From: Okeania sp. SIO3I5
Lineage (GTDB): Bacteria > Cyanobacteriota > Cyanobacteriia > Cyanobacteriales > Microcoleaceae
DNA length: 32,232 nt
NCBI RefSeq assembly: GCF_010672085.1
Contig: NZ_JAAHHT010000051.1
Location: 934-33,165, forward strand
Direction of reading: 5' to 3'
The notes under the pieces were generated by a model. That model searched no databases and was not told where the DNA came from. It saw nothing but the letters and a program-made list of their open reading frames with translations. This document shows positions 29,063 through 32,232 of the stretch, piece after piece. The position numbers and the translations under genes are program-made. Position 1 is the first letter of the stretch. The number at the start of each line of letters is the position of its first letter.

Positions 29063-32000
29063 ATGAATGCTGAAAAAATAGATTTCAATAATAACTTAAT
29101 TATAAATAATTTTATTCAAGACCAAACTAGAAAACCTGAAAAAATTAACGTAAAAATTCATCCACAAGATGAAATGTATCTCTATGCTTTGAAAAATACA
29201 AATGGCAGGAAAGATGAAGCTTTACTACGATATTTTTCTAATGGTAAAAGAATTTTAGATGCGGTTAAACAAATTGTAGAATGGTATTTTGATGGCTTTG
29301 AAAATATATCATCTTTTCTAGATTTTGCTAGTGGTTATGGGCGTTTTAGTAGGTTTTTGCTCCAGGAAATACCGAACAATAAAATATGGGTTTCCGATAT
29401 TTATTCTGCAGCAGTAGAATTTCAAAAACAACAGTTTGGTTTTGAGGGGATGGTTTCAACTACTTCTCCTGAAGATTATCAAATAAATCAAAAATTTGAC
29501 TGTATTTTTGCCTGTTCTTTTTTTAGTCATATTCCTCAAAAAACTTTTGCTGCTTGGTTAAAAAAATTATATAGTTGCTTAACTGAAAATGGCATATTAA
29601 TCTTTAGTACCCATGATTTATCTTTGATGACTATAGAGACAGATGTAGAAGCAGAAGAAATTTATTTTACTCCAGAAAGTGAAAGTCTTTTTCTGAAAAC
29701 TGAAGATTATGGAGTTACTTATGTTGGAAATAAATGGGTACGTAAAGTCATTGAAAAAGTAACTCAGGGAAAGGCAAAATGGCATCGAATTAAAAGAGGT
29801 CTTTGTGGATACCATGACTTATATATTATTTGGAATTCAGGAGTCAGGAGACAGGAAGCAGGAGACAGAAAACAGGAGTCAGGAGTCAGGAGTCAGGAGT
29901 CAGGAGTCTTCATGAAGTCAGAAGTTGGAACTCAGGAGACAGGAGACAGGAGACAGGAATCAGGAGTTAGGAGACAGGAGTCAAGAGTCTTTATCAAGTC
30001 AGAAGTTGGAACTCAGGAGACAGGAGTCAGGAGTCACAAGGAAGAAGTCTTGATAAATTCAGAAGTTGGAAGCAAGAATTCAGAACTCAGAACTCAGAAC
30101 TCAGAACCTTTTATCAACTCAGAAGTTGGAAATCAGAGGTTAAAAATTGCAGAACAAATAGATGAGTTATTAAACTTTCATTGTCATCCTGATGGAGGTT
30201 GCAAACAAATTAAAATGACAGTCACGGGAGACATTTATTTAGAGGGATGGGCAGCAGATATTAATCCAGAAGAAAAGGTAGAAAAAATATCAATTTTAAT
30301 CAATGGGAAGGAAGTAGAAAGTTGTTACCCGAAATATAAAAGTCAAACTCAAAAGTATCAATGGTCTTGTACTATTGATGGTCACAATTTATTAGCAGAT
30401 GACGTTATCCTGGTGAAAATTATTAATAATTTTCTTTTAGAGCGAGTAGTTAATATTTATCCCCTGAATACTATCGCATTACTCCCACCAAATCATCTGT
30501 TATTAAGAATAAGTGGCAACCCTAGTGCGAAGGCTTTTCTTAGTTCGTTTGATGACCTTAGATATACAGTAAAAAATTATCTCCAAACAGCAGGATTTGA
30601 TTTTAATCAATTTGACAATATATTAGATTTTGGTTGTGGAGTAGGACGTTATTTAATGGCATTTGAACCTGAACTTTTGCCTAATCAAAAACTCTTTGGT
30701 TGTGATGTTTTTGCCGAATGTGCTGAATGGTGTCAAGAAAATATTAAATTTGCTACGGTCAAACATAACGATATTCAACCACCATTACCTTTTGAAAATA
30801 ATCAGTTTGATTTAATTAATTCTATCTCGGTATTTACTCATTTAAGTATAGATTTACAACATCTTTGGGCGTGGGAAATTTATCGAGTTTTGCGTCCTGG
30901 GGGAATATTATTTATGACTCTTCACGGACCTCAATTTTTTCCGATAGTTTATGATATTTTTCTGAATGGTAATGCTCATAAAGCGGAAATGTATAGTATT
31001 GGTGAAGAGGGATTATTTTTATATCTTGACCATGAGGGAGAAATAGATGGTCAAGGTCAACGTACTATTGCAGCAGTTCATACACCTGCAGCTTATCAGG
31101 AAATATTTTCTATGTTTAAACACATTAAAAGATTTCCTCAAAGTAATTTGGCAAATGGGCAAGATTTATATATTTTACAAAAGCCAATTTCTGGAGGTTT
31201 AGTTGCTCAACCTCTTAGTATGAATTCAGAATTTAGAATTCTGAATTCAGAAGTTTTGATTGACTCAGAATTCACAACTGAGAATTTAGAAGTGAAAAAT
31301 TTTGCCAAAATGGAAGAGGTGAGAAATATAGAATCAGAATTCAAAACTGAGAATTTAGAAGTTAAGAATTTGAGTAAATCGGAAGAGGTGGGAAATATAG
31401 AATCAGAATTTACAAATGAGAATTTAGAAGTTAATAATTTAGGCAAAACGGAAGAGGTGGGAAATATAGAATCAGAATTTACAAATGAGAATTTAGAAGT
31501 TAATAATTTAGGCAAAATGGAAGAGGTGGGAAATATAGAATCAGAATTCAAAACTGAGAATTTAGAAGTTAAGAACTTAGGCAAAACGGAAGAGGTGGGA
31601 AATGCCAAGGAAGAAATAATCGGAAAGATTAACTCGGCAGTCGTAAGTCAGAATTTAGAAGTGAAAAATTTAGGCAAAACGGAAGAGGTGGAAAATATAG
31701 AATCAGAATTCAAAACTGAGAATTTAGAAGTTAAGAATTTGGGCAAAACGGAAGAGGTGGAAAATATAGAATCAGAATTCAAAACTGAGAATTTAGAAGT
31801 TAAGAATTTAGGCAAAACGCAAGGTGTGGGAAATGGCAAGGAAGAAATAATCGGAAAGATCAACTCAGAATTCAAAACTGAGAATTTAGAAGTGAAAAAT
31901 TTAGGCAAAACGGAAGAGGTGGGAAATATAGAATCAGAATTTACAAATGAGAATTTAGAAGTTAATAATTTAGGCAAAACGGAAGAGGTGGGAAATATAG

Positions 32001-32232
32001 AATCAGAATTTACAAATGAGAATTTAGAAGTTAATAATTTAGGCAAAATGGAAGAGGTGGGAAATATAGAATCAGAATTCAAAACTGAGAATTTAGAAGT
32101 TAAGAACTTAGGCAAAACGGAAGAGGTGGGAAATGCCAAGGAAGAAATAATCGGAAAGATTAACTCGGCAGTCGTAAGTCAGAATTTAGAAGTGAAAAAT
32201 TTAGGCAAAACGGAAGAGGTGGAAAATATAGA
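29063..32232 (+). CDS. 3'-partial ORF (at least 1056 codons, no stop before the window end): two tandem class-I SAM-dependent methyltransferase domains, an STRR-derived linker and a C-terminal tandem-repeat tail; candidate glycan chain terminator (WbdD-like)
   Basis: This ORF is absent from the supplied track because it has no in-window stop. I translated it manually: first ATG after the upstream stop (TAA at 29003) is at 29063, and the frame stays open to 32232. MT domain 1 has 'FLDFASGYGRFSRFL' (motif I) and 'FDCIFACSFFSHI' (motif II). MT domain 2 has 'ILDFGCGVGRYLMAF', 'FDLINSISVFTHL' and 'LRPGGILFMTLHG'. The linker at 29835-30130 is made of CAGGAGT/CAGGAGA and CTCAGAA heptamers kept in frame. 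From about 31217 onward the sequence is 69-bp (23-aa) tandem repeats 'NIESEFKTENLEVKNLGKTEEVG'. Confidence 0.75.
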   Translation, partial: MNAEKIDFNNNLIINNFIQDQTRKPEKINVKIHPQDEMYLYALKNTNGRKDEALLRYFSNGKRILDAVKQIVEWYFDGFENISSFLDFASGYGRFSRFLLQEIPNNKIWVSDIYSAAVEFQKQQFGFEGMVSTTSPEDYQINQKFDCIFACSFFSHIPQKTFAAWLKKLYSCLTENGILIFSTHDLSLMTIETDVEAEEIYFTPESESLFLKTEDYGVTYVGNKWVRKVIEKVTQGKAKWHRIKRGLCGYHDLYIIWNSGVRRQEAGDRKQESGVRSQESGVFMKSEVGTQETGDRRQESGVRRQESRVFIKSEVGTQETGVRSHKEEVLINSEVGSKNSELRTQNSEPFINSEVGNQRLKIAEQIDELLNFHCHPDGGCKQIKMTVTGDIYLEGWAADINPEEKVEKISILINGKEVESCYPKYKSQTQKYQWSCTIDGHNLLADDVILVKIINNFLLERVVNIYPLNTIALLPPNHLLLRISGNPSAKAFLSSFDDLRYTVKNYLQTAGFDFNQFDNILDFGCGVGRYLMAFEPELLPNQKLFGCDVFAECAEWCQENIKFATVKHNDIQPPLPFENNQFDLINSISVFTHLSIDLQHLWAWEIYRVLRPGGILFMTLHGPQFFPIVYDIFLNGNAHKAEMYSIGEEGLFLYLDHEGEIDGQGQRTIAAVHTPAAYQEIFSMFKHIKRFPQSNLANGQDLYILQKPISGGLVAQPLSMNSEFRILNSEVLIDSEFTTENLEVKNFAKMEEVRNIESEFKTENLEVKNLSKSEEVGNIESEFTNENLEVNNLGKTEEVGNIESEFTNENLEVNNLGKMEEVGNIESEFKTENLEVKNLGKTEEVGNAKEEIIGKINSAVVSQNLEVKNLGKTEEVENIESEFKTENLEVKNLGKTEEVENIESEFKTENLEVKNLGKTQGVGNGKEEIIGKINSEFKTENLEVKNLGKTEEVGNIESEFTNENLEVNNLGKTEEVGNIESEFTNENLEVNNLGKMEEVGNIESEFKTENLEVKNLGKTEEVGNAKEEIIGKINSAVVSQNLEVKNLGKTEEVENI
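31207..32232 (+). repeat. In-frame 69-bp tandem repeats (about 14 copies in window) organised in a ~441-bp higher-order repeat; they continue past the window end
   Basis: 31207-31608 and 31648-32139 are near-identical, which is why the track reports two near-identical antisense ORFs there. The 69-bp units encode 'NIESEF(K/T)(T/N)ENLEV(K/N)NLGK(T/M)EEVG'. Periodic variant units encode 'NAKEEIIGKINSAVVSQNLEVKNLGKTEEVE'. Confidence 0.8.

Follow-up and report, generated by a model that had tools for sequence, protein, structure and literature searches.

The methyltransferase gene at the end of a contig of Okeania sp. SIO3I5 carries a hierarchical tandem repeat that is best explained, taken as a whole and with a probability of roughly 0.7, as a translated minisatellite that expands an inter-domain linker, has its origin in heptanucleotide runs and most likely serves as a disordered tether. 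The window, by which we mean the whole 32,232-nucleotide stretch of DNA that was analysed, ends where the contig does, within the repeat array. The array is a spacer that expands fast and is probably floppy. It is a clear but fairly ordinary coding repeat, and current understanding is not overturned by it.

Organization and copy number of the array

The strong tandem repeat that a sequence-only reading of this DNA had noticed at the window end is borne out by TRF (period 69, 12.9 copies, score 583; period 300, score 1142) and by a self-identity of 73% at an offset of 69, against about 31% at an unrelated offset. As assembled, the array is made up of ten 69-bp and three 93-bp complete units arranged head-to-tail, followed by 8 nt of a fourteenth, in the order S S S S S L S S L S S S L, where S denotes 69 bp and L denotes 93 bp. 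The short unit encodes 23 residues, NIESEF(KT/TN)ENLEV(K/N)NLGKTEEVG, and the long unit encodes 31, with the prefix NAKEEIIG added to the 23-residue form; the unit peptides given earlier match those in our unit table. The features of the region are:

31222 to 31252, plus strand, imperfect GAATTCA heptamer run (x4.4, TRF) leading up to the array and encoding NSEFRILNSE
31256 to 32224, plus strand, minisatellite array of 13 units (unit table, alignment, TRF and repeat search)
31394 to 31924, plus strand, one complete 531-bp higher-order unit, S S S L S S L, being 300 + 231 bp
31911 to 32232, plus strand, exact 322-nt duplicate of 31380-31701 (the longest exact match, at offset 531), reaching the last base of the contig

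Several details of the sequence-only reading change as a result. In its span of 31207 to 32232, the first figure is only the end coordinate of an antisense ORF; the array proper starts at 31256. The repeat stands, but its count of about 14 copies of 69 bp becomes 13 complete units, three of them being 93 bp, plus 8 nt. The variant form had been placed at every sixth or seventh unit; the 93-bp form is in fact the 6th, 9th and 13th, each following two to five short units. The super-unit of 441 bp stemmed from a comparison of the two antisense ORF intervals and must be abandoned, as identity at offset 441 is at chance level (31%). The true period is 531 bp, with 87% identity at that offset, and units U2-U4 and V1 are identical to U7-U9 and V3. 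Positions 31911-32232 are a second, incomplete higher-order copy, in which the assembly stopped. All lengths in the array and its repeats (69, 93, 231, 300 and 531 bp), as well as the 24-bp difference between the unit forms, are multiples of three, and the coding strand of the array is 46% A and 70% purine.

Could the copy number be a product of assembly? The 69/93-bp array might be real while its second 531-bp copy and its unit count came from a short-read assembler looping in the repeat graph, a scenario that we consider unlikely but worth serious attention. The contig does stop within the array, its last 322 nt exactly copy earlier sequence, and three of 20 loci of the family break within spacer 2, the segment that holds the array. 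However, the left junction of the second copy differs from that of the first (V2 to U7 versus U1 to U2) and has 10 mismatches in the preceding 53 nt, which supports at least two routes into the block. L001, an independent metagenome contig that is complete on both sides, also shows the S S S S L S S L S order and the 231- and 300-bp periods seen here.

Other classes of repeat were considered. The unit motif was absent outside spacer 2 across about 330 kb of fetched loci, and a dispersed genomic element is rejected on this ground; within the window, the sequence outside the array has only chance matches of 11-16 nt to the unit. A CRISPR-like array is rejected because the units abut without spacers, and a structured RNA is disfavored by the absence of any Rfam family in the window. 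A phase-variable contingency repeat would have a unit whose length is not a multiple of three, and both 69 and 93 bp are multiples of three. Degenerate unit patterns gave no match when searched against metagenome DNA, and among the 8000 word-sharing candidates of a protein search with the array by itself none received a score, probably an effect of composition filters.

Domain layout, predicted structure and genomic setting

The gene into which the array is built is laid out in the window as follows:

29063 to 32232, plus strand, two-methyltransferase ORF of 1056 codons plus 2 nt, stop-free and running off the contig end, its ATG at 29063 corresponding to the ortholog N-terminus
29828 to 30133, plus strand, linker 1, joining MT1 to the beta domain and MT2, with in-frame heptamer runs (TRF)
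30134 to 31207, plus strand, beta domain (about aa 358-460) and MT2 (Pfam), ending ...GQDLYILQKPISGGLVAQPL

The protein in NCBI, named "methyltransferase, partial" for this strain, is 100% identical to the 1056 codons of the window. Pfam assigns aa 80-190 and aa 520-620 each to a class I SAM methyltransferase domain, and the one beside the array is of the sugar-pathway type. The ortholog set comprises 17 complete loci from Okeania, Trichodesmium and Dapis. The region of the beta domain and MT2 is 86-93% identical in 17 orthologous loci, and the full domain order is MT1, linker 1, beta domain, MT2, spacer 2 and C-terminal domain, the last taken from the orthologs. In the complete orthologs spacer 2 consists of 52-306 aa of variable repeats, or 51-306 aa among complete proteins, a six-fold range of length, and in 17 of 17 the reading frame runs on from it into a conserved C-terminal domain of 105 aa ending ...VSWNFANFA-stop. 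The array had been described as a tail at the 3' end of the ORF. It is most probably an internal spacer instead, because the repeats of the orthologs are always in frame with this domain; the ORF continues to the contig end and the NCBI protein is labelled partial. The SIO3I5 protein is predicted to be a four-domain enzyme with its last domain beyond the contig, not a methyltransferase with a repetitive tail. The array is flanked upstream by MT2 in the window and downstream by coding sequence in all complete orthologs; we infer the same continuation in SIO3I5 from these relatives because the 3' end of the gene lies outside the window. The C-terminal domain has no significant match in Pfam or among PDB sequences, a weak match to NT-C2 (E = 0.035) being disregarded. 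A profile of the domain retrieved only two fragments of its own family from a clustered protein set, and showed no relation to the Wzt_C domain or to the internal beta domain.

Spacer 2 is acidic and hydrophilic, with a net charge of about -13 per 100 residues, and would most likely act as a disordered tether whose weakly constrained length lets the C-terminal and catalytic domains move apart without loss of function. Prediction of disorder and coiled coils, which the sequence-only reading had proposed, places both linkers but not the folded domains among disordered sequences in the charge-hydropathy plot, and no coiled coil appears in either AlphaFold run. In the MSA-based AlphaFold model of P0002, the spacer has a pLDDT of about 19 and no secondary structure, but calling it coil is weak because the full-length MSA-based model is poor overall (mean pLDDT 38). 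Together with composition, this one run points to a tether that is acidic and disordered.

A single-sequence AlphaFold model of the window array gives one 10-residue and one short strand per unit with pLDDT peaks of 65-72, and this low-confidence model suggests beta strands in the array. Taken further, each 23-aa unit could be one coil of a beta-solenoid or beta-rich rod, and the spacer a stiff acidic stalk. The strands are strictly periodic (pTM 0.54), positions holding N, S, Q and G are conserved as they are in solenoid ladders, and the top Foldseek matches are all solenoids (curli CsgA, TPS domains and pectinase-like folds), albeit non-significant. Nevertheless, we find a rod of this kind improbable. 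The mean pLDDT is 53 with no residue above 90, the best Foldseek match has an E-value of 0.014, a probability of 0.35 and a TM of 0.19, and a solenoid could not stay regular with units of both 23 and 31 aa, the 8-aa inserts being below pLDDT 50. The coil of the MSA-based model and the charge-hydropathy position also argue against it, and models built from a single sequence tend to invent solenoids where repeats are perfect. Across eight genomes, unit positions N1, I2, S4, E12, V13 and N15 are near-invariant, and positions 2, 6, 11, 13, 16 and 22 stay hydrophobic. This conservation appears to exceed what a linker defined by composition only would need, with common descent explaining part of it.

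The gene lies in a glycan-export locus, two members of which are located upstream in the window:

25268 to 26173, plus strand, wzm-type ABC-2 permease (Pfam ABC2_membrane, 5e-22)
27185 to 28567, plus strand, wzt-type ABC ATPase with Wzt_C carbohydrate-binding domain (Pfam ABC_tran, 6e-23; Wzt_C, 1.4e-25)

The locus order is wzm, wzt with Wzt_C, the methyltransferase gene and then a gene for a sulfotransferase - coiled coil - GT2 - GT2 - GT4 protein, and the gene order around wzm is conserved in L001-L004. The neighbour protein has a coiled coil of about 460 aa between its sulfotransferase and its GT2, GT2 and GT4 domains, and its inter-domain length (735-847 aa) varies by only about 15%. In WbdD, as in the methyltransferase with the array, catalytic domains are followed by a long spacer and a C-terminal non-catalytic domain (PMC11231755, PMC3482155). 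The SIO3I5 spacer might be imagined as an adaptive, WbdD-like device that sets length by keeping the methyltransferase domains at a fixed distance from a C-terminal anchor, the number of repeats then tuning where or when a growing glycan is methylated or terminated. The matching domain layout, the position of the gene downstream of wzm and a wzt with Wzt_C, as for wbdD, and the conservation of some unit positions all favor this possibility, to which we nonetheless assign a low likelihood. No helix is present in either AlphaFold run, and the hydrophobic residues of the unit are spaced 4, 5, 2, 3, 6 and 3 apart without enrichment of any heptad register (hydrophobic at a/d 0.35 versus 0.26 overall); glycine is found in every unit. 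A ruler would be expected to be constrained in length, whereas this spacer varies six-fold among relatives and also differs in length among loci whose MT2 DNA is 96-98% identical. The canonical format is already present, at tight length, in the next gene, and a linker of roughly 32-43 aa suffices in distant homologs. A matched ruler is rejected because spacer 2 does not track the inter-domain length of the neighbouring coiled-coil protein (rho 0.32, p 0.25, n = 15). Kinship with WbdD is not found by sequence either, the best PDB matches being generic methyltransferases (E about 3e-4).

Lower still are the odds that the two repeat-built linkers serve bloom-forming Microcoleaceae as a device for the evolvability of their cell surface. 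Under that speculation, gain or loss of spacer 2 units would retune the reach of the methyltransferase from its anchoring C-terminal domain, while slips of one heptamer unit, or super-units that break the frame as they do in Okeania KiyG1, would leave the enzyme split or truncated. Closely related strains would then differ in how an exported sulfated glycan is methylated or terminated, and the system would be a non-helical counterpart, encoded in repeat number, of the enterobacterial O-antigen coiled-coil rulers.

Reading frame, ancestry and turnover

The frame of ATG 29063 contains no stop up to the last base of the window, while the other two sense frames contain 46 and 29. Across spacer 2 the complete orthologs are open in the sense frame only (17 of 17), and none has a stop near the end of MT2; with the in-frame 105-aa domain that follows, these data sustain the earlier claim of translation. 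The unit has a pN/pS of 0.62, above the 0.37 of the C-terminal domain and the 0.17 of MT2, and appears to be under relaxed constraint. That the protein ends near 31210 with the array an untranslated satellite open by chance, or that the gene is a pseudogene here, is very hard to credit: tandem copies of a stop-free unit are necessarily open and one relative (L012) has lost frame continuity in linker 1, but no ortholog stops by the MT2 end, all complete ones go on into the C-terminal domain, every change in unit length is a multiple of three and the unit pN/pS is below 1. The array is best regarded as a translated, in-frame internal spacer of a conserved multidomain methyltransferase.

Two ORFs on the opposite strand come from the ORF list and are judged incidental:

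31207 to 31608, minus strand, antisense ORF of 133 aa
31648 to 32139, minus strand, antisense ORF of 163 aa

They are kept apart by stops within a 93-bp unit. Both are incidental because L001, the nearest relative that shares this unit type, is closed in every antisense frame, with 15-24 stops per frame and a longest open stretch of 52 codons. The equivalent frames are also closed in most orthologs. An antisense gene is rejected on these grounds, in agreement with the original view of the antisense openness as a by-product.

Linker 1 retains what spacer 2 has largely lost. Its runs comprise a TCAGGAG family (x28) and AGAACTC (x4.7), with nascent 81-bp and 60-bp units; TRF reports 29837-30036, 29852-30033, 29954-30071 and 30075-30107, and the perfect runs are CAGGAGT x5.1, CAGGAGA x3.7 and TCAGAAC x4.0. 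In orthologs linker 1 measures 21-203 aa. Heptamer runs of this sort would in principle qualify as frame-switching repeats. Tandem 7-bp units of these kinds are scattered through the window (TRF), and the same ACAGGAG unit also occurs in the intergenic tract 13554-13586.

Both unit forms can be traced to runs of the NTCAGRA heptamer, and linker 1 is built from such runs as well, so the proposed common origin of linker and array holds at the level of the heptamer. Positions 30075-30124 and 31221-31270 share 38/49 identities (score 48 versus a null maximum of 30), the array lead-in (31222-31252) aligning with the end of linker 1. Most orthologs with perfect runs in both linkers have one heptamer family or more in common between the two, and the 69/93-bp unit has a residual lag-7 signal (z = 3.7 and 3.0-3.5). 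Heptamer repeats proper are found in linker 1 (29837-30036 and 30075-30107) and in the lead-in, whereas the array itself keeps only a relic. At the position equivalent to the lead-in L001 has a perfect x4.4 run, and L012, L016, L017 and T. erythraeum still have a TCAGAAG run, which encodes KSEVRSQK, as the first half of their unit. A parallel array, 66-bp x15 and built on TCAAAAG runs, is present in linker 1 of L012.

As to the unit forms, the 93-bp form is common to SIO3I5, Trichodesmium and other Okeania, while the 69-bp form is confined to the window, L001 and P0005. This distribution points to the 93-bp unit as ancestral and to the 69-bp unit, which had been taken as the base unit, as a derivative that lost its first 24 bp by in-frame deletion. 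Turnover is rapid. Across relatives there are anything from 0 to at least 13 unit copies, loci with MT2 DNA 96-98% identical have linkers of different length, and unit similarity is 0.84-0.98 within an array versus 0.70-0.82 between most arrays, with the exception of the L001-L009 pair (0.88, equal to the level within L001). In the remote homologs P0044-P0055 the C-terminal domain directly follows the MT2-type domain. The array is a lineage-specific insertion because distant homologs join both domains with a linker of only about 32-43 aa (by eye, six sequences).

Comparison among relatives shows a stepwise history. The module of MT2 and C-terminal domain is old, with a normal linker of about 32-43 aa, and cyanobacterial NTCAGRA and AAGAAGG heptanucleotide runs colonised both linkers in the Okeania/Trichodesmium/Dapis clade. 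A decayed heptamer run, together with the sequence for LEVKNFGKTEDVGNAKEEIIG, was then duplicated as the 93-bp unit; a 24-bp in-frame deletion in the lineage of the window yielded the 69-bp unit, and re-duplication of 3-4-unit blocks (231 and 300 bp) the 531-bp super-unit. The presumed mechanism is slippage, or unequal recombination, between units that are nearly identical. The downstream C-terminal domain would stay in frame throughout because all of these steps are multiples of three.

Relation to known systems

The locus is of use in several ways. It preserves, inside a reading frame, the stages from a 7-bp microsatellite through 93-bp and 69-bp units to a 531-bp super-unit, and offers a worked example of the birth of protein repeats and of the sites that tolerate them, with a parallel case in linker 1 of a related strain. 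For annotation, it matters that three assemblies of the gene family break at spacer 2. The array also marks a conserved, little-studied wzm-wzt glycan locus in Trichodesmium and Okeania, which includes a protein of the terminator-ruler-polymerase type and in which the length of the methyltransferase linker is a natural variable.

Among known systems, the curli CsgA beta-solenoid resembles the array in its unit of about 19-23 aa and its conserved N, Q, S and G, and was the top, non-significant match of the low-confidence model. The array differs in being very acidic and hydrophilic, in its mixed unit lengths and in its setting in a predicted intracellular enzyme, and the confidence of its model is too low for a claim of fold. 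The WbdD, WbbB and ORF6(O7) rulers share with SIO3I5 a gene placed after wzm and a Wzt_C-bearing wzt, methyltransferase domains, a long spacer and a C-terminal non-catalytic domain. Unlike them, the SIO3I5 spacer is non-helical, without heptads and hypervariable in length, the coiled coil being on a separate neighbour protein.

Cyanobacteria have heptanucleotide repeats of the STRR type and related heptamers, and such repeats are noted to be tolerated between modules of modular proteins (PMC4679880, on the TAACTGA class). Similar 7-bp tandem units build linker 1 and the array lead-in. STRR heptamers are typically intergenic, whereas the SIO3I5 runs lie inside a reading frame and are read through, three copies giving a 7-aa peptide repeat. 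In spacer 2 the runs have decayed and were then re-amplified as 93-bp and 69-bp units, so that the array has ceased to be a heptamer repeat. In Borg elements, in-frame amino-acid tandem repeats give variable, mostly disordered segments (PMC9879509). The SIO3I5 array has the same head-to-tail units in multiples of three, a purine- and A-rich coding strand, predicted disorder, fast turnover with independent expansions in relatives and a site between or outside folded domains. It differs in that its host is a cyanobacterial chromosome and its protein a predicted cytoplasmic enzyme, rather than mainly an extracellular or membrane protein, and in that its units are imperfect, traceable to decayed heptanucleotide runs and organized at an additional 531-bp level.

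The repeat array as an internal spacer of the methyltransferase

The repeat at the end of the Okeania window is a real, translated and hierarchically organised coding minisatellite. Translation of the last 3.7 kb gives one open frame that runs from an ATG at 29063 to the final base (1056 codons and 2 nt) and contains two class I SAM methyltransferase domains in Pfam, MT1 at aa 80-190 and MT2 at aa 520-620. Over its full length this protein is 100% identical to an NCBI entry from a 46-kb MAG contig, 'methyltransferase, partial [Okeania sp. SIO3I5]', so the repeat is cut off by the end of the contig, which is also the end of the window. 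The features of the gene that concern us are the following.

29828-30133: linker 1, made up of TCAGGAG-type and AGAACTC runs
31222-31252: imperfect GAATTCA heptamer run (x4.4) preceding the array
31256-32224, short (S) units: ten units of 69 bp encoding NIESEF(KT/TN)ENLEV(K/N)NLGKTEEVG
31256-32224, long (L) units: three units of 93 bp with NAKEEIIG as an added prefix
Spacer 2: example of the array peptide, TEEVGNIESEFK
Downstream of spacer 2, past the contig end: predicted C-terminal domain of the methyltransferase, motif ...QTEIKFQIEGQK...VSWNFANFA-stop

Orthologs were collected by scanning species-representative genomes for the MT2 domain, which gave 17 loci in Okeania, Trichodesmium, Dapis and other Microcoleaceae, and two complete copies were added through exact-protein look-ups. 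In every complete copy MT2 ends in GQDLYILQKP and is followed by 52 to 306 aa of low-complexity or repeated sequence, and then by a conserved domain of exactly 105 aa, ...QTEIKFQIEGQKRFRVYPQIEP...VSWNFANFA, that runs to the stop. Across the ortholog spacers, stops interrupt every frame but the sense one. Together, sense-only openness and the conserved downstream domain indicate that the array is translated as an internal spacer. The sequence-only reading was therefore right about the reading frame, while its view of the array as the 3' tail of the gene has to be given up; judged from the orthologs, the true C-terminus of the window protein would lie past the contig end. It had also taken the open antisense strand for a by-product, and L001, a metagenome locus with the same unit type, agrees, having 15 to 24 stops per antisense frame. 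The antisense ORFs at 31207-31608 and 31648-32139 are ruled out as conserved genes on the same count.

Tandem Repeats Finder reports periods of 69 (12.9 copies, score 583), 231 and 300 bp (score 1142) over 31263-32232. Cut in reading frame, the array holds 13 complete units in the order S S S S S L S S L S S S L, plus 8 nt of a fourteenth before the contig ends. The 69-bp unit described earlier is recovered, with the long form as the 6th, 9th and 13th unit rather than every sixth or seventh. Self-identity of the array is 73% at offset 69, 71% at 231, 75% at 300, 87% at 531 and 31% at 441, so that the super-unit is 531 bp (300 + 231) and not the ~441 bp first proposed. An exact duplicate of 31380-31701 makes up the final 322 nt of the contig (31911-32232), and contigs that stop inside an exact repeat are what a short-read graph typically yields when a loop is left unresolved. 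The second copy of the exact block has a different left junction, with 10 mismatches across the preceding 53 nt, and the block structure of the window was found independently in L001. On these two grounds the super-unit is real, and the window's count of passes through it is provisional. Spacer 2 in the window spans at least 338 aa, the longest among the loci compared, and two further assemblies break within it (O. hirsuta L013 and Trichodesmium MAG L016).

Heptamer ancestry and history of the units

Comparison of sequences shows the array to be an inter-domain linker that has expanded in one lineage, with cyanobacterial heptamer repeats as its seed. The 69-bp consensus unit matches itself significantly at lag 7 (z = 3.7), and the 93-bp consensus does so at lag 7 (z = 3.0) and lag 14 (z = 3.5). 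Split into sevens, the consensus reads TCAGAAT TCAAAAC TGAGAAT TTAGAAG TTAAGAA. In relatives with one unit, a perfect AAGTCAG/TCAGAAG run (KSEVRSQK) still stands at the equivalent positions. The last part of linker 1 (30075-30124) matches the first part of spacer 2 (31221-31270) at 38/49 positions, with an alignment score of 48; the highest score was 30 among 300 shuffles and 26 among 300 other segments of the window. Most genomes with perfect runs in both linkers have at least one heptamer family common to the two; L001 has AATTCAG in both, and Dapis M126 and several Okeania have AAGAAGG in both. The common origin claimed for linker and tail is thereby supported at the heptamer level, for the runs and for the (F/L)I(N/K)SE junction motif.

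Linker 1 has expanded on its own in Okeania sp. KiyG1 (NZ_BLZO01000088.1), where 4723-5706 is a 66-bp x15 minisatellite independent of the one in the window. Its unit is made up of TCAAAAG x4 and a unique tail, within a super-unit of 197 bp. Because 197 bp shifts the frame, MT1 (ORF 3878-4891) is set apart from the beta domain, MT2 and the C-terminal domain (ORF 5227-7488), possibly as a natural gene split or else through a sequencing problem.

Arrays made up of 31-aa units alone occur in Trichodesmium MAG_R02, a Trichodesmium sediment MAG, Okeania SIO2F4 and Okeania 1238230; the 23-aa form is restricted to the window, L001 and the orthologous protein P0005. Several Okeania and Dapis carry just one unit, and in some it is absent altogether. 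In alignment A3 the 93-bp unit minus its first 24 bp is the 69-bp unit, and this 24-bp prefix is kept across genera. It is flanked at both ends by GGAAA(T/G), a sequence arrangement that fits loss of the segment by slippage deletion. The L001 array, S S S S L S S L S, has both flanks complete and the same 231- and 300-bp periods as the window. Units of one array share a mean DNA identity of 0.84-0.98, versus 0.70-0.82 between most arrays, the exception being L001 and the ortholog locus L009 (0.88).

An exhaustive HMMER search with a fragment containing the C-terminal domain found remote homologs of ~27-44% identity, all with this domain at the C-terminus. An MT2-type methyltransferase precedes it in 9 of the 10 scanned, the remaining one being without a Pfam match. 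The joining linker is short, roughly 32-43 aa by eye in the six homologs read, and in two of the remote homologs, P0044 and P0045, the full architecture is present but neither linker is built from repeats. The arrays are thus insertions specific to a lineage, at a flexible joint that an old two-domain module already had. For the C-terminal domain itself, neither Pfam nor PDB gave a match, and no relation to Wzt_C or the internal beta domain could be detected; its AlphaFold model contains four long strands (pLDDT 50-78).

Heptamers and other repeats occur elsewhere in the window. Intergenic heptamer runs are many, and the TAACTGA repeat known in marine Beggiatoaceae and cyanobacteria (PMC4679880) recurs among them in rotated form, as ACTGATA and TCAGTTA runs.

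8636-8654, 16761-16794 and 20221-20253: intergenic heptamer runs
13554-13586: intergenic CTCCTGT x4.7, reverse complement of the linker 1 unit ACAGGAG
4895-5000 and 5262-5332: 9-bp repeat TCCCACACC (x11.9, then x3.9) and a 17-bp repeat, between a DUF2126/transglutaminase gene and the next ORFs, overlapped by short ORFs on both strands
10129-12510 (+): Ser/Thr protein kinase fused to seven WD40 repeats, whose 126-bp periodicity gives the TRF row 12184-12495
13657-16437 (+): 926-aa homolog of eukaryotic major vault protein (Pfam Vault repeats 7e-67, MVP_shoulder 1e-53)
21697-22581: 294-bp unit x3.0 at 98% identity, adjoining the stop-codon end of ruvB

Homologs of the vault protein have already been described in bacteria and cyanobacteria (bioRxiv 10.1101/872010). 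The 294-bp repeat has no ORF of at least 80 aa and no Rfam match, and its RNA folding is ordinary on both strands (z = 0.09, -1.53). The TCAGGAG-encoded peptide QESGVRRQETGDRRQE stands at several separate sites in P0041, an unrelated 737-aa sulfatase-domain protein from an ENA metagenome; either heptamers insert in frame beyond the methyltransferase gene, or this gene call crosses intergenic repeats.

Physical nature and constraint of spacer 2

The product of the array is most likely an acidic disordered tether whose length is weakly constrained. The spacer contains 24% D+E, 11% K+R and 28% N/Q/S/T, lacks proline and cysteine, and has a pI of 4.4 and a GRAVY of -0.8. Spacer 2 and linker 1 fall on the disordered side of a charge-hydropathy plot, and MT1, MT2 and the C-terminal domain on the folded side. 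In a full-length model of the ortholog P0002, built on a 27-sequence alignment and poor overall (mean pLDDT 38), the spacer is all coil (pLDDT ~19). Alternatively, the array may form a beta-rich repeat: a single-sequence model of the window array gives every unit one strand of 10 residues and one of 3-4 (mean pLDDT 53, pTM 0.54). The folds closest to it are beta-solenoids, none of them significant (CsgA, E = 0.014, TM 0.19), and the charge-hydropathy placement stands against it, so this state is predicted to be less likely than disorder. Neither model contains helices, and no heptad register was found in the array. The unit consensus of eight genomes has a pN/pS of 0.62, whereas MT2 has 0.17 and the C-terminal domain 0.37. 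Unit positions N1, I2, S4, E12, V13 and N15 are near-invariant.

Comparison with coiled-coil rulers of glycan export

The methyltransferase gene follows ABC glycan export genes. In relatives the next gene lies ~20 bp to several hundred bp further on, and its product of ~2000-2200 aa has a sulfotransferase, then a coiled coil of ~460 aa, then GT2, GT2 and GT4 modules.

25268-26173: wzm permease, upstream of the methyltransferase gene
27185-28567: wzt ATPase with a Wzt_C domain, upstream of the methyltransferase gene
L001, 13275-19952: sulfotransferase - coiled coil - GT gene, downstream, with equivalents in L003 and L005-L021

The methyltransferase spacer resembles that of the enterobacterial ruler WbdD in position only; unlike the WbdD spacer, it is non-helical and covers a six-fold range of length. 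Loci with 96-98% identical MT2 DNA have unequal spacer lengths. The inter-domain length of the coiled-coil neighbour is tight (735-847 aa) and is not tracked by spacer length (Spearman 0.32, p 0.25, n = 15, not corrected for phylogeny). For these reasons a molecular ruler is not accepted for spacer 2.

Klebsiella O12 and O7 use a terminator - coiled-coil ruler - polymerase format, which in E. coli O9a is divided between the two proteins WbdD and WbdA (PMC11231755, PMC3482155). The neighbour of the methyltransferase has the same format as the Klebsiella proteins, and by this analogy its sulfotransferase would likely be the capping enzyme in Trichodesmium and Okeania.
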